Positions 9,472-37,969 of a DNA stretch of 64,000 nucleotides are shown piece by piece. Origin of the DNA: a virus; the IMG/VR virus record IMGVR_UViG_3300009183_008543, positions 32,001 to 96,000 of that record. One strand, given 5' to 3'. The notes below the pieces were generated by a model. The model saw only the letters and a list, made by a program, of their open reading frames with translations. It had not been told where the DNA came from and did not search any database. The position numbers and the translations under genes were made by a program. Position 1 is the stretch's first letter. Every line of letters starts with the position of its first letter.

Positions 9472-10203
9472 TCAAGATAATTGCGTCAATATATTCATAT
9501 ATTTTTTTATTTCTTCAAAACTCCAAGGAGTTCCAAATGGAATTCCATCTCTACGATTATCCACACCAACATCAAGTGTTTTGAGTTTTGGTTTACTGGC
9601 TCTAATAGTTTCTATCATCGTATCGAGTACTATTGGGTCTTTAATGAAAAAAGAAAAATTTTCTCTTATTTTATTTTCTTGATCTAAAGACATTCCATTG
9701 ATATCCTCTGCACAATAAGCTCCGTGTACATGTCCATATAGCATCCATGATCCGTACAATCTTTTGTTCCATGATCTGCATGGGTAATGATTCGTAAATA
9801 TTTGTTGCCCATTCACATTGAACATATATTGATCGGCACACTCAAAAAACTTTTCACAAACTTTTCTATCATCATGATTCCCAATAATAAGATGAACATT
9901 TTGACAATTAATTCTAGATCGCAAACTACCAACATATTTCTCTCTATCTTTGCTTCTAGAATAGCAAAAATCACCAATAATGATAAGTTTATCTCTTCTT
10001 CCAACAACAGCATTGATCGAATCAATAATCGCATCTGTCATCAATTGTGTAGATTCTTTAGAGATACTAATTTCAGACAAAGGTATTGATCCATTATCAA
10101 CCAATTCCATCAATCCAAGCTCTATTTGATTCATAAATGGTCTTTTAGAGTATTTGATAATATTTGAATGATTTAGATGCAAATCTGCGGTAAAAAACCA
10201 CAT
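9472..10203 (-). CDS. Calcineurin-like metallophosphoesterase
   Basis: FTADLHLNH, IGDF, GNHD, HYP, GHVH and DVGVD motifs. Confidence 0.9.
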   Translation of the reverse strand: MWFFTADLHLNHSNIIKYSKRPFMNQIELGLMELVDNGSIPLSEISISKESTQLMTDAIIDSINAVVGRRDKLIIIGDFCYSRSKDREKYVGSLRSRINCQNVHLIIGNHDDRKVCEKFFECADQYMFNVNGQQIFTNHYPCRSWNKRLYGSWMLYGHVHGAYCAEDINGMSLDQENKIRENFSFFIKDPIVLDTMIETIRASKPKLKTLDVGVDNRRDGIPFGTPWSFEEIKKYMNILTQLS

Positions 10204-10478
10204 TAGGTGATACTCCCATCAAAAAGACCTATAAATCTATATTTTTCAACGCCATTAACAAAATATATTGTTGTGGGATATAATTCGATTTTGTTATTGT
10301 AAGCGAGATCATGGTTTTCTTCCACATTTATCAATCCGCATTTAGCCTTAAGTCTTGCCTTTTTGAATAAATCAATTTGTAAAAAAGATGGTTTACCCCA
10401 TGGAACCCAAAATAAAACATACCATTCATTCTTTTTGATTAAATGAAAATTTTCATTTGTTATATTGACTAATTCCAT
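10203..10478 (-). CDS. Thioredoxin-fold protein lacking the CxxC motif
   Basis: ITNENF, FWVPWGKPS (in place of FWAPWCGPC), INVEENHDLA, YPTTIYFVNG. Confidence 0.75.
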   Translation of the reverse strand: MELVNITNENFHLIKKNEWYVLFWVPWGKPSFLQIDLFKKARLKAKCGLINVEENHDLAYNNKIELYPTTIYFVNGVEKYRFIGLFDGSIT

Positions 10479-11125
10479 AAAAAGCTAAATCCAAAATTAT
10501 TTATTATTTTTTTGCAGTCTGGAAGTATCAACTTATTCTTTATGACACTCAAATCCGCCCCTACAAACTCAGAATGCCATCCGTGTCTTATCAGCGTAGA
10601 GCTTCCATTCATAAAAACTTGGGGCAAAAACCCCTGATACTTAGTGAAACCAAACATAAATCTAATAATGGCATTTTTTGTTTCTTTTGCCAATCGACAT
10701 TCTGAATAATCTCCGAACAAACAATCTTCAAAATTTTGATTTTTTATATCGAAATTTAAACTACATCTAAGAAGCAATGTCAATAAAGATCTTTTCAACA
10801 CACAATCAAGCCAAAAATTTGATGGTGTCATCCAAATAATATTGATTTTATCTGTTCTTCTAAAATAAGAATATTGCATAGTTGTTCCAGACATGCAAAT
10901 TACTTCTTCAAATTTTGCTATAAAATTTGCAACATTTTCTGATTTAAAATCATGATGAGAGAAATAAAATCCAGACATATTTAATGACATTTTTCCTAAA
11001 AACTGTTCACGACAATGATCCCAAATAATAGGCTTAGGGCTTTCCTGATCACAAGCAAAGTAGCCAATTAGAGGGCAATTATAAATTAAATTAATCGTTT
11101 TTGATTCTAAAAATTTTGCTGGCAT
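10469..11125 (-). CDS. Hypothetical protein, paralog of 47918..48475
   Basis: Shares W-x-HCRE, PS-x-[FW]WL, RSL-x-T-x-LLR, NFE-x-x-L and GWH-x-x-F motifs with that protein. Probable start MPAKF. Confidence 0.7.
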   Translation of the reverse strand: MPAKFLESKTINLIYNCPLIGYFACDQESPKPIIWDHCREQFLGKMSLNMSGFYFSHHDFKSENVANFIAKFEEVICMSGTTMQYSYFRRTDKINIIWMTPSNFWLDCVLKRSLLTLLLRCSLNFDIKNQNFEDCLFGDYSECRLAKETKNAIIRFMFGFTKYQGFLPQVFMNGSSTLIRHGWHSEFVGADLSVIKNKLILPDCKKIINNFGFSFLWN

Positions 11126-11135
11126 ATTTACCAAA

Positions 11136-11798
11136 TTAATTGTTGAATTCCAACCGACAAGGTGATTTATCGGCAAATAATTTTCCAATCCATGCACTAT
11201 AGCTCTTAAGATATACAAGCATTGCATTGAACCATATCGAACACATCGATCTAGAATCCAAGCTAATATGATTTACTATTTCATTTATACTTTGAATTCT
11301 TTTTTCTAAGGAATTTTTCAAATTTAAACTTTCCCAAAGAAGTGATTTTATATTGTGTGGAACTTCTAAAAAATAAAGATCAAACATATAGACAAATGAT
11401 TCCCATAACATAAAACGAGCATCTTCTTTTGAATTTGCAAAAATCCAATTTGTATTAGACTTTTTAACTGCATAATACCAACTATAAATGAACTCCTCAT
11501 AATCATCATATTCAATCTTTTGACTTGATAAAGTTTTGAACAAAGTATTATGACTTACAAATTCATCATTCCTAATAGAATTCAATATTGGATATTGTAT
11601 TTTTTGAGGATATTTAAATTCAATGAAATAATTACCCGGACTTTTTGTTCTATTGTTCCAGCTAATGCTTATGTAAAGATAAGTATTTGATGTGGTAATA
11701 ACTGATGGTTTTGCTATAGCAAATGTATTATAACAATGATGAACAACAGATAGATTTTGAAGATTTTTTCGCTGTATATATTCTTCTAATATATTCAT
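11136..11798 (-). CDS. Hypothetical protein
   Basis: 220-aa ORF in a coupled gene run. Confidence 0.6.
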   Translation of the reverse strand: MNILEEYIQRKNLQNLSVVHHCYNTFAIAKPSVITTSNTYLYISISWNNRTKSPGNYFIEFKYPQKIQYPILNSIRNDEFVSHNTLFKTLSSQKIEYDDYEEFIYSWYYAVKKSNTNWIFANSKEDARFMLWESFVYMFDLYFLEVPHNIKSLLWESLNLKNSLEKRIQSINEIVNHISLDSRSMCSIWFNAMLVYLKSYSAWIGKLFADKSPCRLEFNN

Positions 11799-12487: not shown

Positions 12488-12705
12488 TTCAATTCCTCAA
12501 GAAATTTATTTTGAAAAGTAAAATCCTTCAGCCTAATCCAACATTTTGAATCCTCATCCCAAGTAATGGGATATTTTTTTGGTATGGATTCCAAAATATC
12601 AAATAAATGAGTTACATTACTAGCATGTTCTAACGATCTTTGAAAAATTAATGGATGTAATTTTGGATATCTTTTTCTCAATCCATCAACGATATTATTA
12701 TCCAT
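12484..12705 (-). CDS. Hypothetical protein
   Basis: Overlapping start and stop codons with both neighbours. Confidence 0.6.
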   Translation of the reverse strand: MDNNIVDGLRKRYPKLHPLIFQRSLEHASNVTHLFDILESIPKKYPITWDEDSKCWIRLKDFTFQNKFLEELK

Positions 12706-13000: not shown

Positions 13001-13002
13001 TT

Positions 13003-13848
13003 TTACCTCTCTGCTTTCTTAATTGTTAAATAACTATCTGGTGTTACTCTTTCCTGTAAATCTTTCGACAAACCATTTACATATCTCACATATGTTTTCT
13101 GAAAATCATCCATAATTTTGAATCCCAAAACTTTTTCCGTAGCAACCTTCGATCCACTATGATGAGATGTTTTCAAAAAACTATGAAATCTTACTTCTCC
13201 GAATTCTTTACGCAACAATAAGCACAAAGCTGCAGATTGCGAAGAAAATACTTTTTGTCTATCTAAACTCAATTTCAAAAATTGATCTTCTTGTAAATTC
13301 AAGATACTCTCTAAATCAAACAACTTACTACTAGATAAAGAAGATAAATCAACTTTAATGTCTGATGTCAGACCATTCAATTGACACATACCTTTGATAG
13401 ACCAAATCGGAAACTTAAAATTGTTTACTTGTTCAAATTCTGCAAAAATAATTTGACTTAAATTAATTGGTAAAATTTTTGCAGGTTTATCGTCTAAAGC
13501 CAACCACATAGCCGTAATTTCAATTGATCCATCTTTTCTTCTAATCTCAACTTTTGAATCATTTAAATTAAACAACTTATTTAACATCGCAGAATCTGGA
13601 ACGCAAAAAATTCTACATTCTTTAGAAAATTTAACATCTGGCAAACCCCATCTTGTTAAGCACCAAACTTTGATGTCATCAAGATTGTTTTTCATCCATA
13701 GCCCATGATCGTCATCAATGCTTAGAATGGTGAAATTACTTGTGACATATCGATGCCACGCCAAATCTTTCAACAATTGATCATCTTGTGCAATAACAGA
13801 TGTATTGAAAAAAAACAACATAAACATTAAAACAAAAGTTTTTCTCAT
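13003..13848 (-). CDS. Secreted peptidase MA-like protein without HEXXH
   Basis: Signal peptide, YVTSNFTI, FPIWSIKG (P-x-W-x-x-EG position), FSSQSAAL (FYAQS position). The HEXXH position reads PINLSQ. Confidence 0.55.
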   Translation of the reverse strand: MRKTFVLMFMLFFFNTSVIAQDDQLLKDLAWHRYVTSNFTILSIDDDHGLWMKNNLDDIKVWCLTRWGLPDVKFSKECRIFCVPDSAMLNKLFNLNDSKVEIRRKDGSIEITAMWLALDDKPAKILPINLSQIIFAEFEQVNNFKFPIWSIKGMCQLNGLTSDIKVDLSSLSSSKLFDLESILNLQEDQFLKLSLDRQKVFSSQSAALCLLLRKEFGEVRFHSFLKTSHHSGSKVATEKVLGFKIMDDFQKTYVRYVNGLSKDLQERVTPDSYLTIKKAER

Positions 13849-13860
13849 AATAATTTATCC

Positions 13861-14847
13861 TCAATCAATTTTGTATATCCTATCTAATAGAGTTTTTGCT
13901 TCTTTTTTAGCATTGATTTGTTTAAAATAATGATTTGAAGAAGAAGAATTTTGATTTTTTATGATTCTTTTTAATAGCCATTTTCTTAAATTGAAAAAAT
14001 TATTATCGTATATATCAAAGGATCTTTGCCTGTATAAGCCAAAAAATGATAACATATCTGTTACTGAGTATCTTCTTTTTGATAAATTATTTAATGGAAA
14101 TATTTTTTTATTTTTAACATAATCAACAAAGTTTACAAATAATATAATCCAACACTTAGCATCTTTTCCACAAACAGTTCCTTCTGGACATCTAAATTCA
14201 ACCGTATTACGAATGTCTGTTTTGTTGTGTAAAGAATTATAAAAGTTGACAATATTTAAAGTTGATCTTTTAGCATTTGTTGCCGACAAAACATCCTCGC
14301 TTGGCTTGAAAAACTTGGCAATGTTGACGGCATCCAATGATGAATAAAGATGTGATATTACCCAATGTTTTATACTAGGATTTAAAAATTTACAATATTT
14401 ATTTTCCCATCTTGAAAAAGGCAAAGCATAAATTAAAACTTGTTCTATTGCCATCCAATACAAAAGAAGTCTGCCTATATCGTCTTCATCAAAGTCACTA
14501 ACATCAACATGAACATGAAGTCCACAAAATTTATTGACTTCGGCTTTATTTTGTTTCACCTTGTTTATAACATGAGAAACATGATTCACATCTTTTAATC
14601 CAGAACAAATATAACTTGCTATTTCGATTCCTAATGGACCTCCAGATCCACGAGGACCACAACTGGCATCATTTTTCACATGCCAATAATTATTTCTATA
14701 TGAAAGCGAATAACGAGTCGTTATTGCTTTTCTGTAAGAATTCTGCTCTATAATTTTCTTTATGTCTTTTTTAGATAAATTGTTCGACAACTCGAATTCA
14801 ACTCCGAATTTACGATTAGAATTAAATTTTTTATATTTTATTTTCAT
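13861..14847 (-). CDS. Putative amidoligase (COOH-NH2 ligase type 2)
   Basis: RKFGVEFE, WHVKNDAS, EIAS, CGLHVHVD and TVEFR motifs. Confidence 0.85.
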   Translation of the reverse strand: MKIKYKKFNSNRKFGVEFELSNNLSKKDIKKIIEQNSYRKAITTRYSLSYRNNYWHVKNDASCGPRGSGGPLGIEIASYICSGLKDVNHVSHVINKVKQNKAEVNKFCGLHVHVDVSDFDEDDIGRLLLYWMAIEQVLIYALPFSRWENKYCKFLNPSIKHWVISHLYSSLDAVNIAKFFKPSEDVLSATNAKRSTLNIVNFYNSLHNKTDIRNTVEFRCPEGTVCGKDAKCWIILFVNFVDYVKNKKIFPLNNLSKRRYSVTDMLSFFGLYRQRSFDIYDNNFFNLRKWLLKRIIKNQNSSSSNHYFKQINAKKEAKTLLDRIYKID

Positions 14848-14856
14848 TTATTTAAC

Positions 14857-15120: not shown

Positions 15121-15123
15121 TTA

Positions 15124-18100
15124 TCACACATAAAATTGGGATTGTGGTTCGGGTCGAAGAGACGATATATCAATAATATTCGTGTCGAGACTAATATTTC
15201 TATCAAGTATTCTGCAAACAAAGTCATTGGCATCCCAATAAGTTCCCTTAAATATATTTAACTCATCATAATAACTGAATGTGTCTACATTAATTTTAAG
15301 ATCATTTGTAACATACTCTGGTCTAAAGTGAAAGTCAAATGTAAAATCTATTCCAAAACTTGTAAATTTATTGCATAAATCTTCTGATGGAAATAAAACA
15401 AAAAGTCTAGCATCTGTATTACTTCCTGTTTGCAAATTGATTCTTTTTGCATAAAGACCAAATTTCCACATAGATGATGATAAAACATCTTCTCCGTATT
15501 GAGATATACAAGACCAGTCAAAATTAATATGCCAAAGTTCCTGAGCATTAGAATTATCACTTCCTATGCCACGAAGATGCAATGAATATTGCCAACTATT
15601 TGTAATAGTATTATAAAACAACTGTAAAGATTCTGGTATCTTAAGATTATTTCGTAATAAAAAGTCTTGCAATATATTTGCACTGCCTAGATTGGTTCTC
15701 ATGTACAATGTTTCTGGTATCGCATCACAATTGCCACATGTGGTTGTTATGTTTTGCGTAATAGCAGCCAAATCTGTCACAAAATCTTCAGCATAAGCAA
15801 TTTCTAAAAAATCAATCTCAGTAATAACCCCCATGGATATATCATCGACATTTAATGGCGAATCATAAGTTCCAGACAAATAAATTGATCCACTACCATC
15901 AAATGCATAACCCGGAACAACATATTCCGAGTCTCCTCCCAAAGATATTGGCGATAATAAAGATGTATACCAAAAATCTCCAGCTATAGAATCTCTTGTA
16001 GATGCTGCATCTCCCAAAGTAATAGGAACCGAATCATCTACTGGAATTTCAAAAGATGCAATTCCAATGTCAATTGAACCATCCAAAATTATGGTTCCAC
16101 TTCCCTCATAAGATTGATATGGAGAAATTGCTTTCGCTGAACCACCAATTGAAACTGTACCCAAAGATTCAAATATGTAAATATTTCTTGAATATATAGA
16201 ATTTCCATAAACATACATTAATCCATCTACATATGGTTTAATCGGATAATCAGCACTTCCGTAAACCACAACTCCTGCATAAGATGGATATATATATCCT
16301 AATCCAGTAGACGCAAAACTCAATTTAAATTCGACCAATGACTCATTTGAAGTTGTAATACCACCAGAAGTATTATACTTATAATAAGGACTTACTGGTA
16401 TGGATTCGCCTTCTAAGGTTATAGATCCTGATGATTCGTAGTTGTAGTTTGATAGTGATATCAAAGCAGAATCATCTATATAAACATTTCCATCTCCCAC
16501 ATAAATATAAAATGCACATAAAACTTCAGAAGATCCAGAGGTTGAAATATTTCCGCTAGAAATATATTTTCTTTCTAAATTTGCTTGAGAATTTATTGTT
16601 ATTCCGCCAGATGCCTCGTAATACGACAATTCAATAATTCCAGTTTTTATGCCCATAGAAACTACTGTTGTTGCAACAATAGTGAATGGTATGCATTCTG
16701 GTATTTTTGAAAATGGAACTGAGACGAATTCATTGCTTGAAGGTACTGGCAGTCCATTTATTGCAATTCCTGTTGAACCTATGGCGACAAAAGAATTAAC
16801 AGGATGAATTGATCTTTGAATGTCTGCTATTGGCCAAGTCCAATTGACATCAGTTAAAAACTGGCAAACTTCTCCTAAATCTCTAGCAACAATCTCTTGA
16901 AACATTCTGTTCAAACCATTTGGTATTGCACAAAATGGAATATTATCACAATTGTAGTACTCAACACCAACAACCCTAAATGTTCTTAGTGGTAATTCTC
17001 CAACATTAAAATTAAATGTTTGACTAAATTCAAATTGTTTATAAATATCAAAATTAAAATCAAAATTAAAAAAAACAGAAACGGTTGGATTAGTATAAGC
17101 CACATAACTTAAAGATATCTTCCCATTTCCAACAAAATTAATACTTGAATTACAAATAGCATTTCCAGATATTAAAATTTCTCCAGAACCAACAAGTGGT
17201 ATTAGTGTGGTGAGAGAAATTTCTTCGCCAATAGACTCTGGAGATCCGTGAGAAATTGGTCTAAAATAATATTTTACTCCTGAAATCAAATTGGAAATAG
17301 TCACTCTATGTTCAAAAACCAAATTGCTATCTTCTACTGTCGAATATGCATATCCATAAGTAGGACTTTCACCTAAACCTGAGCGAGAAACAGTATCGTA
17401 AACAACACGACTAGTCGAAGGAGTATTCGTAATCCAAGATATTGTTATCAAAGTAGTCGTTGAAGTAGCTTTTGAAATAGCTGAGACTGCACTTATTACT
17501 GGAGGCTCTTTTGGACTTATGGAGCTTTCATAGCTCAGAATAACTCCTCCATCAGCAATGACGCTAAGATTTAAATTAACAATAGCTGTTCCAAATATTA
17601 TAATATTTTCAGAATCAGAAATAAAAGTCAAAGCATATTCGAATAAACTATTTGCGTCATTTGTGCCACTTGGAGTTGTAACCAACACACTTGCAGAACC
17701 AAGAACATTAGAATCTGTGATCGCAATGATAGTATTCGAGTCCACGACTGTAAATTCGATAACAGCAATGCCACCAATTGTGACTTCTGTAGTTCCCGTA
17801 AAATTTTCTCCAGTAATCGTAATCGAAGTTCCGCCAGATATAGAGCCATTAGACGGATAAACGCTGGTTACTGTAGGTGGCACTTCAATGTATTCGAATA
17901 AGCTATTTGCGTCATTTGTACCACTTGGCGTTGCGACCAACACACTTGAAGAACCAAGAACATTGGCACCTGTGATAGCAGTGATAGTAGTCGAATCCAC
18001 GACTGTAAACTCGGTAACAGCAATGCCACCAATTGTAACTTCTGTAGTTCCAGTAAAATTTTCTCCAGTAATTTCAATTGAAGTTCCACCCAATGTTGAT

Positions 18101-21100
18101 CCGCCAGAGGGAGAAACGCTGACTACTGTAGGTGGCACTTCAACATATTCGAACAAACTATTTGCATCATTTGTACCACTTGGCACTATAACTAACACGC
18201 TAGAAGTTCCAGCAACATTAACATCTGTGGTTGCAGTGATGGTGGTCGGATTAACTACTGTGAACTCAGTAACAGCAATGCCACCAATTGTAACTTCTGT
18301 AGTTCCCGTAAAATTTTCACCAGTAATCGTAATGAAAGTTCCGCCCAATGTTGATCCACTAGATGGAGAGACGCTGGCTACTGTGGGAGCATTTTCAATG
18401 TATTCGAACAAAATATTTGCGTCATTTGTACCACCTAGCGTTGTAACTAACACACTTGCGGGACCAGCAATATTAACATCTGTGGTTGCAGTTATAGTGG
18501 TCGAGTCAACAACTGTAAACTCAATAACGGCAACACCGCCAATTGTAACTGATATCACATCAGCAAAATAAGTTCCAGTAATCGTAATTAAAGCACCACC
18601 TGATGTAAATCCACTAGATGGAGAAACGCTTGCTACTGTTGGAGAAGTTTCAATATATTCGAAAAAACTATTCGCATCATTTGTGCCACTTGGCGTTGTA
18701 ACCAACACACTTGAAGAACCAGCGACATTGGCATCTGTGGTTGCAGTTATAGTGGTTGAGTCAACGACTGTAAACTCAATAACGGCAACGCCACCAATTG
18801 TAACTGATATCACATCAGCAAAATAAGTTCCAGTAATCGTAATCGAAGTTCCGCCTAATATAGAACCACTAGACGGAGACACGCTCGACACTGTCGGAGT
18901 AGTTTCGACATATTCGAACAAACTATTTGCTTCATTTGTGCCACTTGGAGTTGTGACCAACACACTTGCGGAACCAACAACATTGGCACTTGTGGTCGCA
19001 ACAATGGCTGTAGAATTCACGACTGTAAATTCGGCAACAGCAACGCCACCAATTGTGACTTCTGTCGCATCAGTAAAATAAGTTCCAATAATTGCAATCG
19101 AAGTTCCGCCTAATGTTGATCCACTAGACGGAGACACGCTTGACACTGTCGGAGTAGTAACAACATATTCGAACAAACTATTTGCTTCATTTGTGCCACT
19201 TGGAGTTGTGACCAACACACTTGCGGAACCAGCAACATTGACATCTGTGGTAGCAGTAATGGTGGTCGAGTCAACAACTGTAAATTCAGTGACGGCAACG
19301 CCACCAATTGTGACTGCTGTCGCATCGGTAAAATAAGTTCCAGTAATCGTAATAGAAGTTCCACCCAATGTCGATCCACTAGAAGGAGACACGCTTGAAA
19401 CTACGGGCAGTACTAAAACATATTCGAACAAGCTATTTGCATCATTTGTACCGCTTGGAGTTGTGACCAACACACTTGCGGAACCAGCAACATTGACATC
19501 TGTGGTTGCAGTTATAGTAGTCGAGTCAACAACTGTAAATTCAGTGACGGCAACGCCACCAATTGTAACTGCTGTCGCATCGGTAAAATAAGTTCCAGTA
19601 ATCGTAATCGAAGTTCCACCTAATGTCGATCCACTAGACGGAGACACACTTGCTATTTCTGAAATAGGTAATGTATAAAGGAAAATAGTTGTTTCGTCAT
19701 TTGTACCGCTTGGAGTTGTGACCAACACACTTGCGGAACCAGCAACATTGGCATCTGTGGTTGCAGTTATAGTAGTCGAGTCAACAACTGTAAATTCAGT
19801 GACGGCAACGCCACCAATTGTGACTGCTGTCGCATCGGTAAAATAAGTTCCAGTAATCGTAATTGAAGTTCCGCCTAATGTTGATCCACTAGACGGAGAA
19901 ACGCTTGATACTGTAGGAGCAGTTTCGATATATTCGAACAAACTATTTGCATCATTTGTACCGCTTGGAGTTGTGACCAACACACTTGCGGAACCAACAA
20001 CATTGACATCTGTGGTTGCAGTTATAGTGTTCGAGTCAACGACTGTAAATTCAGTGACTGCAATACCACCAATTGTAACTTCTGTAGTTCCCGTGAAATT
20101 TTCTCCAGTAATCGTAATCGAAGTTCCTCCCAATGTCGATCCACTAGAAGGAGAGACGCTTGATACTGTAGGAGAAGTTTCAATATATTCGAACAAGCTA
20201 TTTGCGTCATTTGTACCGCTTGGAGTTGTGACCAACACACTTGCGGAACCAACAACATTAGCATCTGTGGTTGCGTTAATGGTAGTCGAGTTCACGACTG
20301 TAAATTCAGTAACCGCAATACCACCAATTGTAACTTCTGTAGTTCCCGTGAAATTAGTTCCAGTAATCGTAATAAAAGTTCCGCCTAATGTAGATCCTCT
20401 ATATGGAGAAACACTGGCTACTGTAGGTGGAACAACAGAATAGGTAAACAAACTATTTGCACTATTTGTGCCACTTGGAGTTGTGATCAACACACTTACA
20501 ATTCCAGCAGATCTAGCAGATATGATTGCTGTTATGGTGGTTGAGTTTACGACAGTAAAAATAGAAACTGGAGAGCCACCGATTGTAACTGCTGTTGCTC
20601 CAGTGAAATTTGCTCCAGTAATCGTAATGGAAGTTCCGCCCAATGTTGATCCGCTAGAAGGAGAGACGCTTGATACTGTGGGAGCAGGAGCCACATAAGT
20701 GAACCAGTGATTTATGTTTCCATCACTTGTTCCTCCTCCAGTTGTAACCAACACACTTGCAAGACCAGCAACATTTGCCGGGGTAATTGCGGTAATAAAG
20801 GTTGGACCAATAACGGTAAGTCCTATTCTGCAAAAAGATGTCAGAAAGTTCTTGCTTGGACCTATTTGCCCTCTGGCTAAAAAAGAAAAAGAAATTAAAT
20901 CGTTGACATTCACCATTAAAGAGTCAGAAGCTTGTACATTGGCAGAAGCGCCGACATATACTCCGTTGACTTGAACCGAAGCTAAAATGGCGTTAGTATG
21001 ATCCCCATATGGCCAAGATATGCTGATATATAAATGTCCAGCCTTGACAACTTTTAGCGTTGCCCTTAATGATACTGGACTAGAGGTTGGGTAATCAGTT

Positions 21101-27100: not shown

Positions 27101-28083
27101 CCAAAATTAGAAATAAGACTTTTTTCATATAAGTCATATCCTACTTCTGAAAATGGTCTGATTATTTCGCCATATCTTGAGGGTAAGTTCAATGAACCAG
27201 AAAGACCGTAAAAATTATTGCCATCCGGTGAAACTGAAATTTTTACAGTCGAACGCTGGTTATATCCATGATAGGCTCCATTATGAACATAACTGGTTGT
27301 ATTCAGAGCATAGGGTCCACCATAGAAAACACCAAAAGCCCATATCGTACTTTTCTTCTGGAATCTGAAAACATTGTTGCTTTCATAAAAACTCACATAG
27401 ATAAATTTCCCATCCGGAGAGAAAAACAAATCATCGGGACTCTGTTTTTCCGGAAGCCACTGGTAAGGATCTGCGTTGAATACCGAACCTTGGCTTATTT
27501 TTCCGTTCAAGGTATTTCTGTAATGAACTCCAATCTTATTGCTCACATTATCTGTCGCACAAAGATAATCTCCGGCTGGCGAAATGGCGATTTTAACTAG
27601 CGCCATGCCTATAGAATAAAATGTTTCGACATAAGTCAATAGACCAGTTCCTGTATTGCGATTGCAAACAAAAAAAGCATTGGATATACCATTGCCAAAA
27701 TAAATATTTTTATCGTCTGGCGAGATCGCACTGCAAATTCCCCCATATCCAAACAAAGCGGAGTAAGTCAACAAGCCAGTTGAAATGTTTCTATCGTAAA
27801 TCCTTGTCTGACCTGTTCCAATTACATAAACATTTTTTCCGTCTTGAGAAATCAAAAGTTTGGAATAGCTTGAAACTGGGTTTGCTGGATCTACTGGAGT
27901 CGTGCTGTTTAAAGTTAAAGTTCCAGTCAAAGTGTCACGATTGTAGATTAAAATCACAGAAGAATTGGAACTGTTGACATAGACATTTTTGCCGTCAGAA
28001 GAGATGCATCCAGATGTGGGCGCATCTCCAGCCGATATCACTCCATTTTCAATCAGATACCCAAGACTCCATCTGTCTGCCAT
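15124..28083 (-). CDS. Giant 4319-aa adhesin/fibre-like protein: beta-propeller, 2 IPT, beta-propeller, 28 IPT/TIG, Fn3-like domain, short beta repeats, C-terminal domain
   Basis: SPDGKN-x-YV lactonase-type propeller blades. About 85-aa repeats PTV-x-SVSPSSGSTLGGTSITITG...FTY. ISWITNTPSTSRVVY...YYFRPIS Fn3-like domain. No signal peptide. Confidence 0.88.
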   Translation of the reverse strand: MADRWSLGYLIENGVISAGDAPTSGCISSDGKNVYVNSSNSSVILIYNRDTLTGTLTLNSTTPVDPANPVSSYSKLLISQDGKNVYVIGTGQTRIYDRNISTGLLTYSALFGYGGICSAISPDDKNIYFGNGISNAFFVCNRNTGTGLLTYVETFYSIGMALVKIAISPAGDYLCATDNVSNKIGVHYRNTLNGKISQGSVFNADPYQWLPEKQSPDDLFFSPDGKFIYVSFYESNNVFRFQKKSTIWAFGVFYGGPYALNTTSYVHNGAYHGYNQRSTVKISVSPDGNNFYGLSGSLNLPSRYGEIIRPFSEVGYDLYEKSLISNFGVNPQTGSFGKSIDIPTGIYPVDIIISSDGNSVYVINAAGDSLYSISNGEKTISMFNRGNGESTLSPLPQITSVFPSSGSTLGGTSITITGAYFTGATAVTIGGIADTGFKVVNSITITAIVPVNVAGPAIVLVTTPNGTNVTNNINIFQYEANALASVDIYPSGVSTLGNELVYITGPNFSGVTAVAVGGITATTFYGIDSKIIAVLVPPKTLGNAAISVTSQNTNITIDKNLTYFESESKPWLSQKQIVANDFSGLKSCISPDGMNIYALTFNSNFDSKISIYSKNFSTGLFSLDSNTSVGSLPVDICASPDGKNLYVLHRDKISMFYRDALTGLLIEGTSRISTGIKSPWANINPAAICITPNGKYVYVACNGQGGETTAPNNLDDPANYVSIAMFKRDSITGVLIGNFSMNRDLLFSNAFSLKYYGGQKRNNYGSGINGVYASPDGLRIYISGGGSISALGIIQDQVSQLQPAGTISFGIRRDLPQIGNIINDVAISSDSRFVYVNNNDKISIFDCISETTGGSWLTVSTTFDLNLTSPAGSGSCTSVCISPNGKNFYVGVNLSGYRKIIILNRNVSNGSLTKINTVQQNVSSYENPENIFVSPDGANVYVSVLNTKLNPTKYTSSLAVYDLTVSSPTPYIVFPSSGSKLGGTLIAINGANFTGTTAVTVGGVPVTSFTVVNSTTITATTSAGSAGAASILVTTASGTNNANSLFTYVAIPPSITNFLPVSGSTLGGTVITITGTDFIGATAVTVGGVSVTSFTVISLTTITATIAPRYAGNASIYITTPSGTNTGATLFTYAAIPPTVTSVSPSSGFVLGGTSITITGSNFTGATAVTIGISVASFIVVNSTTITAITATRAGYGGDLYPVGTASVLVLTPSGMNNPNNLFAYAIMIPTVTSVSPSSGSTLGGTFITITGTDLIGVTDVRIGGVQVTSFTVVNSTTITAVTAARSFGNVNVIVYNILGSGSPTVTNLFTYVAIPPTVSGVSPSSGSTLGGTSITITGTSFIGATAVTIGGVAATGFTVVNSNTITANIGARFAGISSVLVTTPSGRNGANSLFTYIVVPPIISSFSPSSGSTLGGTSIAIIGVNFTGATAVTIGGFPVASFIVVNSTSITAIVPAGPVGASSVMVTTAGGISHANSLFTYVVIPPTVASISPSSGSTFGGTSITITGANFTGATGVVIGGISVTSFTVVNSTTITATTSARSAGTASVLITTPSGTNGTNSFFTYAVPAPTVASISPSGGSTLGGTSITITGTSFTGATAVTIGSVSVASFTVVNSTTITAIISARSAGIVSVLITTPSGTNSANSLFTYSVVSPTVAGVSPSNASTFGGTSITITGTNFTGTTAVAIGEVLATSVIVVNSTTITAITSARSAGTVSVLVTTPSGTNGANSLLTYVIPTPTVASISPSSGSTLGGTSITITGANFTGATAIIIGGVLASSFTVVNSTTITAIASARSAGIVSVLVTTAGGTNTGTSLFTYAVVPPTVVGISPSTGFTSGGISITITGTDFTGATAVTIGGISVTSFTVVNSTIITAIIAANVAGTASVLVTTPSGTNDTNSLFTYIPAPTVASVSPSSGSTFGGTSVTIAGANFTGATAVAIGDISVTSFTVVNSTTITATIAANVAGYASLLVATPSGTNSPNSLFEYIVPAPVVTRVFPSGGSTFGGTLIAITGTYFADVISVTVGGVAVASFIVVNSTTITATISSRSSGTAETASVLVTTVGGASNANILFAYIVPAPTVSSVSPSSGSTLGGTSITITGVNFTGVKAVSIGGFSVASFIVVDSTTITATTSARSAGTASVLIITDGGGNGANSLFTYVVPAPTVASVSPSSGSISGGTSIAITGTNLTGATAVTIGGVSVITFTVVNSTTINAKIGSRTAGTASVLVTTAGGTNSANSLFTYVAPPPSINSISPSSGSTLGGTFITINGTNLTGTTAVTIGGIAATGFTVVNSTKVIMPFETVYSSNPAFLYEVDSDFFLGTDYPTSSPVSLRATLKVVKAGHLYISISWPYGDHTNAILASVQVNGVYVGASANVQASDSLMVNVNDLISFSFLARGQIGPSKNFLTSFCRIGLTVIGPTFITAITPANVAGLASVLVTTGGGTSDGNINHWFTYVAPAPTVSSVSPSSGSTLGGTSITITGANFTGATAVTIGGSPVSIFTVVNSTTITAIISARSAGIVSVLITTPSGTNSANSLFTYSVVPPTVASVSPYRGSTLGGTFITITGTNFTGTTEVTIGGIAVTEFTVVNSTTINATTDANVVGSASVLVTTPSGTNDANSLFEYIETSPTVSSVSPSSGSTLGGTSITITGENFTGTTEVTIGGIAVTEFTVVDSNTITATTDVNVVGSASVLVTTPSGTNDANSLFEYIETAPTVSSVSPSSGSTLGGTSITITGTYFTDATAVTIGGVAVTEFTVVDSTTITATTDANVAGSASVLVTTPSGTNDETTIFLYTLPISEIASVSPSSGSTLGGTSITITGTYFTDATAVTIGGVAVTEFTVVDSTTITATTDVNVAGSASVLVTTPSGTNDANSLFEYVLVLPVVSSVSPSSGSTLGGTSITITGTYFTDATAVTIGGVAVTEFTVVDSTTITATTDVNVAGSASVLVTTPSGTNEANSLFEYVVTTPTVSSVSPSSGSTLGGTSIAIIGTYFTDATEVTIGGVAVAEFTVVNSTAIVATTSANVVGSASVLVTTPSGTNEANSLFEYVETTPTVSSVSPSSGSILGGTSITITGTYFADVISVTIGGVAVIEFTVVDSTTITATTDANVAGSSSVLVTTPSGTNDANSFFEYIETSPTVASVSPSSGFTSGGALITITGTYFADVISVTIGGVAVIEFTVVDSTTITATTDVNIAGPASVLVTTLGGTNDANILFEYIENAPTVASVSPSSGSTLGGTFITITGENFTGTTEVTIGGIAVTEFTVVNPTTITATTDVNVAGTSSVLVIVPSGTNDANSLFEYVEVPPTVVSVSPSGGSTLGGTSIEITGENFTGTTEVTIGGIAVTEFTVVDSTTITAITGANVLGSSSVLVATPSGTNDANSLFEYIEVPPTVTSVYPSNGSISGGTSITITGENFTGTTEVTIGGIAVIEFTVVDSNTIIAITDSNVLGSASVLVTTPSGTNDANSLFEYALTFISDSENIIIFGTAIVNLNLSVIADGGVILSYESSISPKEPPVISAVSAISKATSTTTLITISWITNTPSTSRVVYDTVSRSGLGESPTYGYAYSTVEDSNLVFEHRVTISNLISGVKYYFRPISHGSPESIGEEISLTTLIPLVGSGEILISGNAICNSSINFVGNGKISLSYVAYTNPTVSVFFNFDFNFDIYKQFEFSQTFNFNVGELPLRTFRVVGVEYYNCDNIPFCAIPNGLNRMFQEIVARDLGEVCQFLTDVNWTWPIADIQRSIHPVNSFVAIGSTGIAINGLPVPSSNEFVSVPFSKIPECIPFTIVATTVVSMGIKTGIIELSYYEASGGITINSQANLERKYISSGNISTSGSSEVLCAFYIYVGDGNVYIDDSALISLSNYNYESSGSITLEGESIPVSPYYKYNTSGGITTSNESLVEFKLSFASTGLGYIYPSYAGVVVYGSADYPIKPYVDGLMYVYGNSIYSRNIYIFESLGTVSIGGSAKAISPYQSYEGSGTIILDGSIDIGIASFEIPVDDSVPITLGDAASTRDSIAGDFWYTSLLSPISLGGDSEYVVPGYAFDGSGSIYLSGTYDSPLNVDDISMGVITEIDFLEIAYAEDFVTDLAAITQNITTTCGNCDAIPETLYMRTNLGSANILQDFLLRNNLKIPESLQLFYNTITNSWQYSLHLRGIGSDNSNAQELWHINFDWSCISQYGEDVLSSSMWKFGLYAKRINLQTGSNTDARLFVLFPSEDLCNKFTSFGIDFTFDFHFRPEYVTNDLKINVDTFSYYDELNIFKGTYWDANDFVCRILDRNISLDTNIIDISSLRPEPQSQFYV
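17630..25190 (-). repeat. Tandem array of 28 IPT/TIG coding repeats, period about 255 nt
   Basis: Recurrent plus-strand motifs such as gtaatcgtaat-gaagttcc-cc-aatgttgatcc-ctaga-ggaga at about 255-nt spacing. Counted by eye. Confidence 0.9.
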
Positions 28084-28911: not shown

Positions 28912-29352
28912 ATGATCAATTTAAATTTCAAAATGTTTTTTGAATCAGAAAAAAATGGTGATTTAAAAAAATTACTTAAAAAGATTCCTTCGAGCCACAA
29001 AGAACTGGTTAAAGATTTTAAGTTCAAATATACAAAAAATAACACCATAAATAGTAAGAATAAACATATAGGCGTGATTCACAAAGATAAAATTGAAGTT
29101 GCAGCACCATGGAATTACGGAAGGGAATTCACTACTCTTCACGAAATAGCACATATGGTTTGGGCATATAAGATGACAAATAAACTAAAAAAAGAATGGT
29201 CTAATATTGTAAAAAAAACCAAAAATAAACCACAAGATACAGATGAAGAGCTTTTCTGTCATTCTTATGCACAATATTATGCGAAGAATAAGTTGTTGAA
29301 ATTTGATATTCCAGAATGGAATAAATTTATCTCTAAAAAAATACCCGCTTAA
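28912..29352 (+). CDS. Zinc metallopeptidase-like protein
   Basis: TTLHEIAHMVW (HEXXH) with downstream EELFC. N-terminus MINLNFKMFFESE. Confidence 0.7.
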   Translation: MINLNFKMFFESEKNGDLKKLLKKIPSSHKELVKDFKFKYTKNNTINSKNKHIGVIHKDKIEVAAPWNYGREFTTLHEIAHMVWAYKMTNKLKKEWSNIVKKTKNKPQDTDEELFCHSYAQYYAKNKLLKFDIPEWNKFISKKIPA

Positions 29353-30074
29353 AGAGGTCTTGACTGCGTTTGACTTATCAATCTTGGTAATACAGAAACT
29401 GCCTCTTCTTGTAATTTTTCATATTCATTAATTCCAAGAGAGAAAATCTTATAGTGATGCAAGACTGGTGTACGCATAATTTGAGGTTTATGACCACGAG
29501 ATTGTGCTTTCATAGTCATTACAAAACTTGTTCCAATTTGTGGCAATTCTTCTGGCCAAGGTCCAATATCGCTCCAACAATCCCTTGTCATCATGATGCA
29601 ATGATCCATAATGAATCCTACATCTTGACTTCCAACTGTATAGGTTTGCGTATCAAGACCTATAAATCCAGATGATGTAGATTCAGCTACATTCAACAAA
29701 AGATCTAACCAACTTGGATTTGTAATAACAATATCACAATGCATAAAGATAAGATATTTAGAATTTTTATCAGATGCATTGGCACCCTTATTACAAGCTG
29801 CCGACCAATAAAGATTCTTTTCATTACGAACTACCTTAACAGTTCCTTCGATTTCATCAAGAAACTGTTGAGATTCTTTTTCGCTTCCATTATCAACAAC
29901 AATAATTTCATAATTAGAATTAAAACTAGTCACACAAATGCTTTGCAAAAGCAAATTGAGATATTCTGGTCTGTCTTTATGAACAACAATAATAGAAATT
30001 TGTTCATCGCTATAATTTTTCAATGAAACTGTCAGATCTGATCTTGATGTGTCTAAAATGCTTCCAGAACTCAT
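29349..30074 (-). CDS. Glycosyltransferase family 2 protein
   Basis: ISIIVV, YEIIVVDNGS, N-x-YWSAACNKGA, FMHCD. Confidence 0.85.
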   Translation of the reverse strand: MSSGSILDTSRSDLTVSLKNYSDEQISIIVVHKDRPEYLNLLLQSICVTSFNSNYEIIVVDNGSEKESQQFLDEIEGTVKVVRNEKNLYWSAACNKGANASDKNSKYLIFMHCDIVITNPSWLDLLLNVAESTSSGFIGLDTQTYTVGSQDVGFIMDHCIMMTRDCWSDIGPWPEELPQIGTSFVMTMKAQSRGHKPQIMRTPVLHHYKIFSLGINEYEKLQEEAVSVLPRLISQTQSRPL

Positions 30075-32836: not shown

Positions 32837-32847
32837 ATAATAATTTC

Positions 32848-33186: not shown

Positions 33187-33238
33187 ATAAATGCCCTTTG
33201 TAAAAATTCCTGATTATTATTTGTTATAGTAACTTTTA

Positions 33239-33475: not shown

Positions 33476-33482
33476 ATAATCC

Positions 33483-34691: not shown

Positions 34692-34698
34692 TTGTGCC

Positions 34699-35256
34699 TC
34701 ATGATTTGGAAAATATACTACAAATCATTTTTGAGCCATCAAATTTTGGTGCAATTTCCACTTGACTTTCTTTAGCTAAACCATCGATCAACTTTTGCAT
34801 CAAAATAATTCCACCTTCACGATGATTCATTTCCCTGCCTTTGAATTTTATTACAAACTGCACCTTATAACCATCTTCAAGAAACTTTCTTGCCTGACTA
34901 AGCTTTGTTTCAATATCTCCACACGCAATTGCTGGACGCAATCTAATTTCTTTATACTGAACAGTTGCTTCTCTTTGCTTTTTTGCCGCCTCTTTTTCCT
35001 TCAGCTTCTTTTCATATTTAAATTTTCCATAATCCATTATTTTACATATAGGTGGAGATGTATTTGCAACTACTTCGACTAAATCTAAACCAGCTTCATC
35101 GGCAATTTTTCTGGCATAGTCTGTATTTACGATTCCAAGCTGTTCATCTCCATTTGAAAGTCTAACTTGTGGTACTTTTATTTGAAAATTTATTCTTAAC
35201 TCACCGGGCTTTAAAAAATTGTTATTGTCTGGTCTTCGATAATTCGAATGATACAT
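34699..35256 (-). CDS. infC: Translation initiation factor IF-3
   Basis: RINFQI...VRL...GLDLVEV...PPICKIMDYGKFKYE...KEIRLRP...ARKFLEDGYKV...FKGRE. Confidence 0.95.
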   Translation of the reverse strand: MYHSNYRRPDNNNFLKPGELRINFQIKVPQVRLSNGDEQLGIVNTDYARKIADEAGLDLVEVVANTSPPICKIMDYGKFKYEKKLKEKEAAKKQREATVQYKEIRLRPAIACGDIETKLSQARKFLEDGYKVQFVIKFKGREMNHREGGIILMQKLIDGLAKESQVEIAPKFDGSKMICSIFSKS

Positions 35257-36767
35257 TAATTTTTTCCTTCATTGAAATTCAAATTTATAATACTAAGCTC
35301 TTTAGATTTTAGGCACTGATTGATTATACTTTCTAAATCAGTCTCGGAATTGGCTGCATAGCCATTTCCAGATCCATAAAAATCTCTAAACATTTTGAAA
35401 TTAAATCCAGTGTTTCCCAAAACGATAATGATTGGGTTTAACTTAAATTTCAATATGGTCGGTAACTCTAACATAGATATTTTAAATGAATTCTCATCAA
35501 TAATAACTATTGGTCTCAATTCTTGCTTTGCTAATTGAACTCCCAAACATCCGGGAATGGCAAATCCACTAGAATATTTGAATGCTGGACTGAAAAATCT
35601 ACTTTGTCTAACTTTAATCTTTGATGCATATATGAGATAATCGCCAGCATCAGATATTACAGTAAGATTCTTATCATTTGCCATAAGTTGATCTATAAAT
35701 GAAAATAATTTTGAATATTTTTTACAATCATTTTCATTTAAAGTTTTATAATCAACAACTTTTTTGGCGAATGATTTTGCAAATAAAGAATTACAAAAAT
35801 CTATAAATGTAACATTGTTATAAACATGATTTTTTATATACAATCCATCGGTAGAACAAAAAACAACTTGCCTTTTAGCAAATCTTGGAGATTCAAATCC
35901 TAAAGTCATATCAGCAATACATTCTCCAAAAACCAACAAACAATCACTACTATCAATCATTTCAATTACTTTTGCATCAGAAGATTTCCCGCAATAAACT
36001 CCACAAAATAAAGGATGATTTTCATCAATCGATGATTTTCCCAATAGCGTTGTCATAAATGGAATATTATACTTTTCAGCAAAACGAACCAATCTATCAC
36101 TTAATCCATAACGAACAACTTGAACTCCAACTAAAATAACTGGTTTATTTGATGATTCAAGCCAAATAGAAGTCTCTTCTATGGCATCACTTAAAGTTTC
36201 CGCATCACTTAATTTTGTGCTTGGTGTGCCTTGACGATAAACATCGTATTTTATTGGTGTGTTTGCAATATCGACTGGTAATTCCAAATAAATTGGTTGT
36301 TTTTTATTTTGTAGATCTTCAATAGCAGAATCTATCGCAAATCCAGCTTTTGTTGCATCATCTAATATTATTGAATTACATGTTATATTTTTAAATATTT
36401 TTTGCTGGTTATCAAAGCTTTTTACCAAATGATGAAGAATAAAATCTTTATTTCTATTTTTTATAGATGGAGAAATAGAAACAACTAAAATAGGAGATTT
36501 TTCTGCGTAGGCTCCAGCAATAGAATTACATAATTTTAATGCACCAGCATTGTAATTTGCACAAACACAACCGACTCCATTTATTCTTGCATATGTATCT
36601 GCAGAAAATCCAGAGCCTGTTTCATCAACATTATTTATGAATTGAATTTTATTGCTTAATTTTATATTTTCAATAAATGGATTGCCGTCTTGTCTAGAAA
36701 CTCCAAATATGTGTTTTACACCTAGATTTTCTAGTCTTTCAATAAGAAATTCAGAGACAGAAGGCAT
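35256..36767 (-). CDS. Indolepyruvate/pyruvate decarboxylase-like ThDP-family protein with degenerate cofactor motif
   Basis: FLIERLENLGVKHIFGV, E...ADTYARING, GAYAEKSP, LHH, PIYLELPVD, LLGKSSIDENHP. The GDG...NN motif reads IDENSF...LGNT. Confidence 0.85.
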   Translation of the reverse strand: MPSVSEFLIERLENLGVKHIFGVSRQDGNPFIENIKLSNKIQFINNVDETGSGFSADTYARINGVGCVCANYNAGALKLCNSIAGAYAEKSPILVVSISPSIKNRNKDFILHHLVKSFDNQQKIFKNITCNSIILDDATKAGFAIDSAIEDLQNKKQPIYLELPVDIANTPIKYDVYRQGTPSTKLSDAETLSDAIEETSIWLESSNKPVILVGVQVVRYGLSDRLVRFAEKYNIPFMTTLLGKSSIDENHPLFCGVYCGKSSDAKVIEMIDSSDCLLVFGECIADMTLGFESPRFAKRQVVFCSTDGLYIKNHVYNNVTFIDFCNSLFAKSFAKKVVDYKTLNENDCKKYSKLFSFIDQLMANDKNLTVISDAGDYLIYASKIKVRQSRFFSPAFKYSSGFAIPGCLGVQLAKQELRPIVIIDENSFKISMLELPTILKFKLNPIIIVLGNTGFNFKMFRDFYGSGNGYAANSETDLESIINQCLKSKELSIINLNFNEGKN

Positions 36768-36786
36768 AGGCTATTCTCCTACACTA

Positions 36787-37542
36787 CTATGACAACTCAT
36801 TACTTGGACTATCATATATCTTAATTTTATATCCCTCTGTATCGACAGGGAACCTTCTGATCCACTCAACATTTTGAGGAAGGCTGCAATTATAGTCAAC
36901 CAAACTAGGATCAGTAAAACTTGGTGTCGCCATTGCAGCTACAGCTACAGGAGTTACCATTTTCATAAGTTTAAATTCTAAAAAATAACAACCCGGCAAA
37001 CATGTGTCTGCTGGTTGCCAATTATAAACCAAGAAACTTTCTGTAAATACATCTTTTTTAGTTGTTCCGTCAATATTGATAATGTCTTCCATTGCCATTT
37101 CTGTGACTGCCGAAACATTTGTGAATTTTATAATCTTTAAAGATTGTCCTTTTTTCCAAGATTGTACCAAAGTTCCATGATAGCCTCTTTCGACTTGAAC
37201 ATAATAATTTGATTCATCGAAAGCAGTTACCAACAAATGTTCGGATTGTCTTGGTCTATCGATTACTATTACATCTCCAATCATGATTTGATTAAAGCCA
37301 ATATTATCAGCCAAAGAAATGTAAGTATCTGAATCTGAAATAGATGACTTAATCTTTCCATTTGCCCACATACTGGCTTCTAACACCAAATCTGTGAGGT
37401 CCAAAGGTCCATCACAATCTTCGACTTTAATTCGCAAGTCAGGCTTTGTGTCATTCCTGCGAATTTTAAAGTCTGGACAATCATTAGTGCCACAATTATA
37501 TTGATCAATGCATCCAGTATTTGTATTTGATGTACATCCCAT
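36787..37542 (-). CDS. Putative virion structural protein (BppU N-terminal-like Ig fold with an insertion)
   Basis: FKIRRNDTKP...PLDLTD...VYNWQPADT...GCYFLEF...RFP...YKIKI pattern. Upstream CATAAATA. Confidence 0.55.
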   Translation of the reverse strand: MGCTSNTNTGCIDQYNCGTNDCPDFKIRRNDTKPDLRIKVEDCDGPLDLTDLVLEASMWANGKIKSSISDSDTYISLADNIGFNQIMIGDVIVIDRPRQSEHLLVTAFDESNYYVQVERGYHGTLVQSWKKGQSLKIIKFTNVSAVTEMAMEDIINIDGTTKKDVFTESFLVYNWQPADTCLPGCYFLEFKLMKMVTPVAVAAMATPSFTDPSLVDYNCSLPQNVEWIRRFPVDTEGYKIKIYDSPSNELS

Positions 37543-37546
37543 AAAT

Positions 37547-37969
37547 CTATTTATGCGTGTTTGACAATATATCTTTTGAGCGCATGAAAAAAATATAATC
37601 TCTCATCCAATTAAGATTGCCAACATAGGCAAAAATCTCAATTTCTAATGTCGAACACAAAGAAATAACTTCATCGTTAATTTTGAGCGTTTGGAAAAAA
37701 ATTATTTTTTTTACATAGGAATTAGCCAGCATTTGAATTGATTTGTAATCTGGCGTATATGTAAAAAATACCTCTTTGCATTCTGGAATTCCAGTTGTTG
37801 AAGCCATGAATAGCTCCGGATCTAATGAATCTTTTTCAGATTCTCCAGTACAAATATTGAAGTTGTCAAAATAATCAACAAACAAAATACACTTTCCATG
37901 AATTGTTCTAGATGCACTTAAAAGTGCTATTCCCATATAATAATCATTATCACGAACTTTTATGCTCAT
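37547..37969 (-). CDS. dCMP deaminase-like protein lacking zinc ligands
   Basis: DYYMGIALLSASRT N-terminus. The HAE position reads DPE and PCxxC reads PDYKS, followed by VKKIIF. Confidence 0.6.
   Translation of the reverse strand: MSIKVRDNDYYMGIALLSASRTIHGKCILFVDYFDNFNICTGESEKDSLDPELFMASTTGIPECKEVFFTYTPDYKSIQMLANSYVKKIIFFQTLKINDEVISLCSTLEIEIFAYVGNLNWMRDYIFFMRSKDILSNTHK

Follow-up and report, generated by a model that had tools for sequence, protein, structure and literature searches.

Catalytically dead homologues of cellular enzymes are retained in eukaryotic viruses, where such pseudoenzymes cooperate with, or compete against, cellular enzymes (excerpted text of the review PMC7605207). Herpesvirus pseudo-glutamine amidotransferases, a poxvirus pseudokinase and the leporipoxvirus pseudo-superoxide dismutase (SOD), an inert decoy, are among the examples in that excerpted text, and their partners have been demonstrated. 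The word 'phage' is not mentioned in the text of the review. Here we describe four genes in a 64,000-nucleotide stretch of phage DNA, referred to below as the window, which encode a thioredoxin-like protein (10203-10478), a clan MA peptidase-like protein (13003-13848), a thiamine diphosphate (ThDP) decarboxylase-like protein (35256-36767) and a dCMP-deaminase-like protein (37547-37969). For all the four proteins, the fold and homology and the absence of the residues that define the enzyme family were confirmed. Like the proteins of eukaryotic viruses, they are retained homologues that appear to be catalytically dead; they differ in that they are known from sequence and models, and in that they belong to other families.

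The explanation that we consider to be fairly probable is that these are four independent, selected pseudoenzymes which keep binding or scaffold roles. Each would descend from an enzyme family, would have lost the residues for the canonical chemistry and would be kept by purifying selection for another property of its fold.

The window corresponds to bases 32001-96000 of an IMG/VR virus record of 136,406 bases (IMGVR_UViG_3300009183_008543), for which CheckV estimates a completeness of 28%. Its guanine-plus-cytosine (GC) content is ~0.30, apart from two giant repeat-protein open reading frames (ORFs). The source is a low-GC freshwater huge phage, and the window is a part of this 136 kb fragment. 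The closest relative in GenBank is the uncultured phage LR756511.1 (595 kb), the ThDP-like protein of which is 41.8% identical over 98% of the length; near-identical DNA is present in freshwater and lake metagenomes from 12 studies. Judged only by the bins in which homologues occur, the host is probably a freshwater Bacteroidota. Translation initiation factor IF3, PDF, DnaJ, a Cpn10-like protein and PhoH are also encoded in the window, and this gene content fits the huge phages of PMC7162821, in the excerpted text of which IF3 and PDF are named. Related loci are designated by L-numbers (L001 is LR756511.1). Ratios of non-synonymous to synonymous substitution (dN/dS) are NG86 values, and pairs with dS >1 were treated as saturated.

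A first-pass annotation of the window had described the four genes as uninterrupted ORFs in coupled runs, and this was borne out: all lie on the minus strand in tightly packed, partly overlapping gene runs, and base 10203 is shared by the thioredoxin-like and phosphoesterase genes, 35256 by the ThDP-like and IF3 genes, and 37969 by the deaminase-like gene and the ORF upstream. Its assignments, namely a thioredoxin with WCGPC changed to WGKPS, an MA peptidase fold without HExxH, a ThDP decarboxylase without GDG..NN and a dCMP deaminase without HAE or PCxxC, also held in the profile, alignment and structure comparisons given below. Overlooked there was the retention of two catalytic elements, Glu49 and an HH dyad, in the ThDP-like protein.

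The ThDP decarboxylase-like and dCMP-deaminase-like proteins

The 503-aa product of 35256-36767 is a 2-keto acid decarboxylase-like protein of the ThDP family with a degenerate diphosphate/Mg site. The Pfam domains TPP_enzyme_N, M and C all scored over the cut-off, the C domain only at profile positions 1-86 of 151, and the best PDB match was the alpha-keto acid decarboxylase 6vgs (E 3.7e-58). The PYR-MID-PP arrangement, the PYR-domain Glu and the HH dyad are common to this protein and to lactococcal KdcA, indolepyruvate and pyruvate decarboxylases (6vgs, 2vbf, 1ovm, 1pvd). Unlike these enzymes, it has a degenerate GDG..NN motif and lacks both the loop after NN and the cofactor-supporting Met. 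In the alignment to 6vgs, GDGS is replaced by DENS and NNDGY by GNTGF. Compared to the intact phage orthologues, it reads IDENSF for GDGAFQ, LGNTGF for LNNxGY and GVSRQ for GVPGD; the loop after NN with TTER is deleted (~17-25 residues), and the C-terminus is shorter by ~40 residues. Ser400 stands at the place of a Met that is present in 23/23 intact and absent in 9/10 dead sequences; this large hydrophobic residue presumably holds the V conformation of the cofactor. The cofactor-activating Glu49 and the dyad His112-His113 are kept and are invariant in the alignment, with the exception of L026-L028, which have SNH.

The deaminase-like gene, a gene for a conserved 251-aa protein (36787-37542, minus strand; weak PHROG matches to tail proteins), the ThDP gene and the gene for an IF3 homologue (34699-35256, minus strand; Pfam IF3_N and IF3_C), which is coupled to the ThDP-like gene, form a cluster that was found in 3 IMG/VR and 33 metagenome loci; in almost every relative the 251-aa gene separates the deaminase-like gene from the ThDP-like one. 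Thirty-three ThDP sequences cover the motif region. Twenty-three are intact (GDG[AS]F; GVPGD, GDGAFQ, LNNxGY-TTER) and 10 are degenerate: the window, L014, L003/15/16/17, L026, L027/28 and L036, in which the loop after NN is also missing. Where the window has DEN...GN, the dead relatives read GQN, SEN, GEE, SED or DDQ at the place of GDG. In a quick maximum likelihood tree (IQ-TREE; partial sequences L029, L036, L037, L042 and L043 left out), the dead forms make up two clades within a 97%-supported clade that also holds the intact L004 and L023, and one or two losses would therefore account for them.

Among L003, L016 and L017 (dS 0.05-0.30), dN/dS of the ThDP-like gene is 0.065-0.086, and that of the neighbouring 251-aa and IF3 genes in the same pairs is 0.019-0.113. 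The conservation is uneven along the protein. In three of four within-clade pairs of dead sequences the PP domain is 0.53-0.55 identical, as against 0.71-0.80 for PYR/MID; in the closest dead pair, window and L014, the values are 0.70 and 0.77-0.79. Intact pairs show no such difference, their PP domain being conserved about as well as the rest. A relaxed PP domain fits a protein that has ceased to bind its cofactor but has kept some other function. The protein would no longer bind ThDP-Mg, and oligomerisation or the binding of a ligand may depend on its PYR and middle domains, which are better conserved. A parallel is TKTL1, which resembles transketolase and carries a deletion at the ThDP site.

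A near-identical strain (DNA runs X3, X4) differs from the window by four non-synonymous changes clustered at 35690-35974; in the neighbouring genes nearly all differences are synonymous, and the data of this strain showed no indels. In two RNA libraries, parts of the ThDP-like and 251-aa genes are covered by contigs that match the window exactly. This is weak support for expression, as carry-over of DNA is possible; the contigs did not cover the deaminase-like or IF3 genes, and missing cover proves nothing.

The deaminase-like gene (37547-37969) encodes 140 aa, for which no Pfam match was obtained at E<=1. With its AlphaFold2 (AF2) model (pLDDT 93.6), the best Foldseek match was human dCMP deaminase 2w4l (E 1.1e-6, TMq 0.64), and those of S. 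mutans, cyanophage S-TIM5 and T4 were also matched. When a profile of the protein and one relative was compared with the PDB, four of the five best matches were dCMP deaminases, all at E >= 0.14. The same two-sequence profile found 51 proteins at E <= 0.001 among 1.84 billion representatives; HAE and PCxxC are intact in many of them, which also pass Pfam PF00383. No significant match emerged when the protein was compared directly with the canonical LR756511.1 deaminase (BLASTP E 0.12, hhalign probability 0.5); homology was established instead through the family that carries a GNLNW motif and through the fold. At the active site DPE replaces HAE (His lost, Glu kept) and PDYKS replaces PCxxC; all three Zn ligands are gone.

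The family of 69 sequences comprises 24 intact, 10 partial and 35 dead members. In its tree (six near-duplicates left out), the window protein falls in a clade with 93% support, the 23 rows of which are without exception dead or partial. Elsewhere in the tree dead members adjoin intact sisters, and the well-supported branches force at least six changes; dead forms arose several times. The Trp of the C-terminal motif GNLNWxRD (GNLNWMRD in the window) is the sole invariant residue of the family, and conservation is higher in this motif than at the catalytic site; we know of no described role for it. The catalysis-independent function may sit in this C-terminal element, which would probably be a partner- or ligand-binding surface. 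Among L003, L016 and L017 (dS 0.05-0.30), dN/dS of the gene is 0.016-0.119. It is missing in L004, L021 and L023, and in LR756511.1 (L001 4762-5217), L038 and L039 a canonical dCMP deaminase without GNLNW is found at the position of the GNLNW-type gene, as if one deaminase type had been exchanged for the other in place.

A comparable arrangement is the tRNA deaminase ADAT2/ADAT3 (7bv5 and 7nz7, among the Foldseek matches), in which the inactive ADAT3 is a catalytically incompetent paralogue of the cytidine deaminase fold, kept as a partner or binding subunit. ADAT3 keeps the Zn site, whereas the phage protein is without all three ligands. The genome of the window also has an intact canonical dCMP deaminase with HAE and PCSGC, outside the window (G000:C1 ~123.4-123.9 kb; L075 1390-1842, minus strand). 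For a predicted complex of the deaminase-like protein with this enzyme, the score was 0.03 and the mark 0.32 in a run without controls, values that speak neither for nor against an interaction.

The thioredoxin-like and MA peptidase-like proteins

The thioredoxin-like protein (10203-10478, 91 aa) matched Pfam Thioredoxin (PF00085) at E=0.001 with 19.5 bits, under the cut-off of 23.5. Intact phage orthologues were matched by BLASTP at E 7e-7 and 4e-5, and a profile of four orthologues, the intact ones included, matched 298 PDB chains of the thioredoxin fold at E<=0.001. In the alignment, it reads WGKPS at the place where related phages have WCGPC or WCSPC. Its sole Cys is residue 47, and none lies near the motif site, so that the protein is without the redox cysteines. 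The cis-Pro loop PT is kept at the sequence level (P68 and T69, invariant in the alignment), and the C-terminus is shorter than in intact orthologues.

The gene is coupled to that for a metallophosphoesterase with intact motifs (9472-10203, minus strand; Pfam, PHROG), at one end of a cluster of amidoligase, MA-like and further genes followed by thioredoxin and phosphoesterase genes, which is found in 29 IMG/VR loci (L046-L074). A thioredoxin gene was found in 10 of the 29 loci, dead in three and intact in seven. The dead forms read FWVPWG(K/N)PSF in L046 = L047 and in L048, the same as in the window; the intact ones, with WCGPC, WCPPC or WCSPC, are in L049, L050, L061, L063/64, L067 and L072, and a further intact form is in L006. 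In 10 loci there is no thioredoxin ORF, and the homologues of gene g252 and of the phosphoesterase abut there. Outside the window (G000:C1 ~130.9-131.3 kb; L076 1498-1944, minus strand), there is a gene for a thioredoxin-fold protein of 148 aa that has WCVWC and, apparently as a signal peptide for export, a hydrophobic segment at its N-terminus. As the genome has this CxxC protein and the intact canonical deaminase, the dead thioredoxin and deaminase copies are additional paralogues.

T7 DNA polymerase and the assembly of filamentous phage (f1) use thioredoxin, and its redox cysteines are dispensable there; the fold thus works as a binding module, as may be the case here. Those phages use the active thioredoxin of the host, whereas here a phage-encoded copy lacks both cysteines and the C-terminal helix. 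The thioredoxin-like protein would be a redox-independent binding subunit.

The MA-like protein (13003-13848, 281 aa) appears to be exported, since it has an N-terminal hydrophobic, signal-like segment, and no match to it was found in Pfam or PHROG. Its AF2 model (pLDDT 93.3) gave M9, M61, M1 and M30 peptidases as the best Foldseek matches (E 1.6e-5, TMq 0.58). In VIA, Vibrio collagenase was matched with Z 16.5 (rmsd 3.9, 223 residues), and 50/50 of the matches listed are clan MA peptidases or TAF2. Among language-model neighbours, Peptidase_MA_2 clusters at 0.95 provide a lead only. PF13485 was matched by 2/45 family members, weakly (E >= 0.094), and a family profile against PDB sequences matched no peptidase; the matches, to reductases and a tape-measure protein, were at chance level.

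HExxH is absent from the window protein, from 29/29 related loci and from 120/120 database homologues (0/150 overall); the HExxH-less state is ancestral to the whole family. The sequence AEFEQ at 136-140 lies on a long helix of the model that may be equivalent to the HExxH helix. CRIFC is conserved at 78-82; Glu137, Glu215 and Cys78/Cys82 are nearly invariant in the family, and Glu215, which is invariant, may or may not correspond to the third zinc ligand of the clan, a Glu on a downstream helix. Between L052 and L057 (dS 0.58) dN/dS is 0.075, with 0.054-0.089 for the neighbouring genes.

Directly upstream lies the gene of an Amidoligase_2 protein (13861-14847, minus strand; Pfam E 3.2e-25), and such a gene is found upstream in 22/29 related loci. 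This suggests a functional pair, yet a signal-like N-terminus is present on the MA-like protein and none on the ligase. The MA-like protein may be an exported substrate-binding, non-cleaving module, perhaps acting with the neighbouring amidoligase. TAF2 of TFIID, a non-catalytic protein of the M1 aminopeptidase fold, is an example of the clan MA fold as a scaffold or binding module (7edx_B and 6mzc_B; Z 10.6 and 9.7 to the MA-like model). Unlike TAF2, the phage protein is small, has the signal-like N-terminus and is nearest to M9 collagenase catalytic domains, or to Peptidase_MA_2 clusters by language-model features.

Age of the losses, selection and alternative explanations

For three of the families (not the MA-like), related phages have intact orthologues in the same place, which points to three lineage-specific losses. 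The thioredoxin, ThDP and deaminase-like losses coincide in the clade of the window with G001/G003 (+ L014), and six other genomes (G002, G004, G005, G007, G008 and LR756511.1) have both thioredoxin and ThDP enzyme intact. Because all three fall in one clade, this is a single phylogenetic observation. The losses differ in age: the MA-like state is family-wide, the deaminase loss is old and recurrent, and the ThDP and thioredoxin losses are recent. The deaminase loss is older than the ThDP loss, and it is seen together with an intact ThDP enzyme in L018-L020, L040 and G007. The three losses are best read as a trend of the lineage and not as a coordinated programme. The clade of the window has the lowest GC content (0.29-0.30); drift towards AT was rejected as the cause, since dead ThDP proteins also occur at GC 0.375-0.384 and dead thioredoxin at 0.47. 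That redundancy allowed the losses is without specific support, since G004, with an intact GNLNW-type deaminase, also has a second PF00383 gene.

Purifying selection after the loss was shown for the ThDP-like, deaminase-like and MA-like genes. The first-pass annotation had stated that general decay was not the cause, and the low dN/dS of these three genes, the same as that of their neighbours, agrees with it. For the thioredoxin-like gene, constraint is judged from three uninterrupted ORFs that share one and the same replacement motif, together with a rate like that of the intact pair L049-L050, which is 42% identical at a similar divergence of the phages. Between the window and G001, the MA-like and ThDP-like genes are among the best-conserved of their own clusters (64%), and no gene of its own cluster evolves faster than the deaminase-like gene (36-39%).

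Several points weigh against reading all four as selected non-catalytic proteins. The non-catalytic status of each rests on motif loss, as judged from sequence. The ThDP-like protein retains Glu49 and the HH dyad, the deaminase-like protein the Glu of HAE, and the MA-like family the near-invariant Glu137 and a Cys pair; with these residues in place, altered chemistry is conceivable. For the thioredoxin-like gene dS is saturated, since the dead pairs available share just 41-48% identity. Of the four genes, constraint is weakest on the deaminase-like one, and its dN/dS reaches 0.37 for window against L014 and 0.84 for L014 against L003, at saturated dS. In the near-identical strain, the ThDP-like gene shows 4 non-synonymous changes to 1 synonymous, as compared to 1:5 in IF3; the numbers are small, and three of the four changes (residues 265, 342, 350 and 360) are in a variable linker.

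That the proteins remain catalytic, having changed their chemistry or their use of cofactors, is unlikely in our view. The residues that would serve such a function are those just named: His112-His113 and Glu49, the HAE Glu, which is retained in most dead deaminase-like proteins as well as in that of the window, and Glu137, Glu215 and Cys78/Cys82 in a family that is strongly conserved overall. Against this, the replacements at the ThDP-Mg site vary among the dead lineages (DEN, GQN, SEN, GEE, SED) and the PP domain is relaxed, the deaminase-like Zn ligands are all gone and replaced by varied residues, and the thioredoxin-like protein has no Cys near the site. Ordinary decay, in which relaxed genes are on their way to loss and have yet to acquire stops, could be invoked for genes that are absent in some relatives (the deaminase-like gene in the three loci named above, thioredoxin in 10 loci), for the fast-evolving deaminase-like gene and for the 4:1 excess in the ThDP-like gene of the close strain. 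It is largely refuted and very improbable, because dN/dS is 0.02-0.12 inside the dead clade at dS 0.05-0.30, the ORFs are intact in all sampled dead lineages across 41-74% identity, the replacement motif of dead thioredoxin is identical in three lineages, and the strain data show no indels. Intact active sites in close relatives had been named beforehand as a sign of pseudogenisation. Such relatives were found for three families; they do not mean pseudogenisation here, because the dead forms persist as conserved ORFs in lineages of that same range of identity.

The first-pass annotation had gone further and proposed a systematic, genome-wide conversion of host-derived enzymes into decoys, dominant-negative subunits of host oligomers or ligand sponges. 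The part of this interpretation that stands is the existence of real, selected homologues of non-catalytic appearance; a single genome-wide strategy is not supported, and we regard it as quite improbable. The coincidence of three lineage-specific losses in one clade, with thioredoxin and ThDP enzymes kept in six other genomes, and the selection on the dead forms would agree with it. ThDP enzymes and dCMP deaminases are obligate oligomers, and poisoning or formation of hetero-oligomers is thus mechanistically possible. Decoy pseudoenzymes do exist in eukaryotic viruses (excerpted text of PMC7605207). The coincidence, however, is one clade and one observation, the ages of the losses differ (MA-like family-wide, deaminase before ThDP), and the immediate ancestors had long been phage genes and were not captured recently from a host. 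The number of cases also argues against it. Pseudoenzymes make up roughly one in ten members of enzyme families; Pfam gives ~18 enzyme-family ORFs in the window, four of them dead, which is not clearly beyond expectation (binomial tail ~0.1 with that share). More specific, and doubtful although conceivable, is the proposal that this freshwater huge-phage lineage has converted, one after another, at least three of the auxiliary enzymes that it had (a thioredoxin, a 2-keto acid decarboxylase and a dCMP-deaminase-like protein) into non-catalytic proteins retained for binding, and that the core function of the deaminase-like family is independent of deamination and works via the invariant C-terminal GNLNW element. 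Such a core function would explain why the Zn site was discarded at least six times. Four selected pseudoenzymes with binding or scaffold roles thus remain the explanation that we favour.

Other genes of the window and significance

The other enzymes of the window had been said to keep their motifs, and this agrees with what was found: PDF has GVGLSATQ, EGCLS and HEIDH, PhoH has GPAGTGKS and IFDE, and the phosphoesterase has DLH, GD, GNHD and GHVH. The motif-by-motif check covered these three and not the other ~10 enzyme-family ORFs; for HNH the basis is a full-length Pfam match only.

The larger of the two giant repeat-protein ORFs, 15124-28083 (minus strand), encodes 4319 aa with 30 IPT/TIG domain matches and an N-terminal lactonase-like beta-propeller match, and its GC content is ~0.40-0.44 as against ~0.30 around it; it is probably a giant surface or fibre protein. 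The other, 56013-63977 (plus strand), reaches the end region of the window and encodes 2654 aa with 23 matches to Stig1 cysteine-rich repeats (E 3.8e-156; GC 0.43-0.49), a family unusual in phage. A 909-aa DNA polymerase III alpha homologue is encoded at 48967-51696 (minus strand). Its Pfam matches start at position 100 of the NTPase-domain profile and Pfam lists no match to a PHP domain; it may be a truncated or split DnaE. Glycosyltransferase-family ORFs are unusually many, five of the GT2 type and one mannosyltransferase-like (2068-2901, 5201-6154, 8010-8882, 29349-30074, 45348-46298 and 54061-54753), and a methyltransferase is encoded at 3475-4353.

In the literature searched, no account of such phage pseudoenzymes was found; supplementary annotation tables, which were outside the search, may list these genes. 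Neither 'inactive' nor 'pseudoenzyme' occurs in the text of PMC7824862, and 'inactive', 'thioredoxin', 'deaminase' and 'decarboxylase' do not occur in that of PMC7162821. Pseudoenzymes are a known class, and these four probably do a non-catalytic job of a kind not yet described for phages in the literature searched.

As a rule, the auxiliary 'metabolic' genes of phages are annotated by nothing more than the name of their family, and ecosystem models count them on the same basis. The decarboxylase, thioredoxin, deaminase and peptidase homologues described here would be labelled as enzymes or as 'hypothetical'; they appear to lack the chemistry of their families and yet are selected. They are concrete cases of phage pseudoenzymes that can be tested, and sister phages supply the natural controls, namely the intact orthologues that occupy the same position there; in the deaminase-like family, a C-terminal motif is conserved better than the catalytic site. 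If these proteins do act on host counterparts or metabolites, by poisoning of hetero-oligomers or by cofactor or nucleotide sensing, they would represent a class of phage-host interference undescribed for phages.

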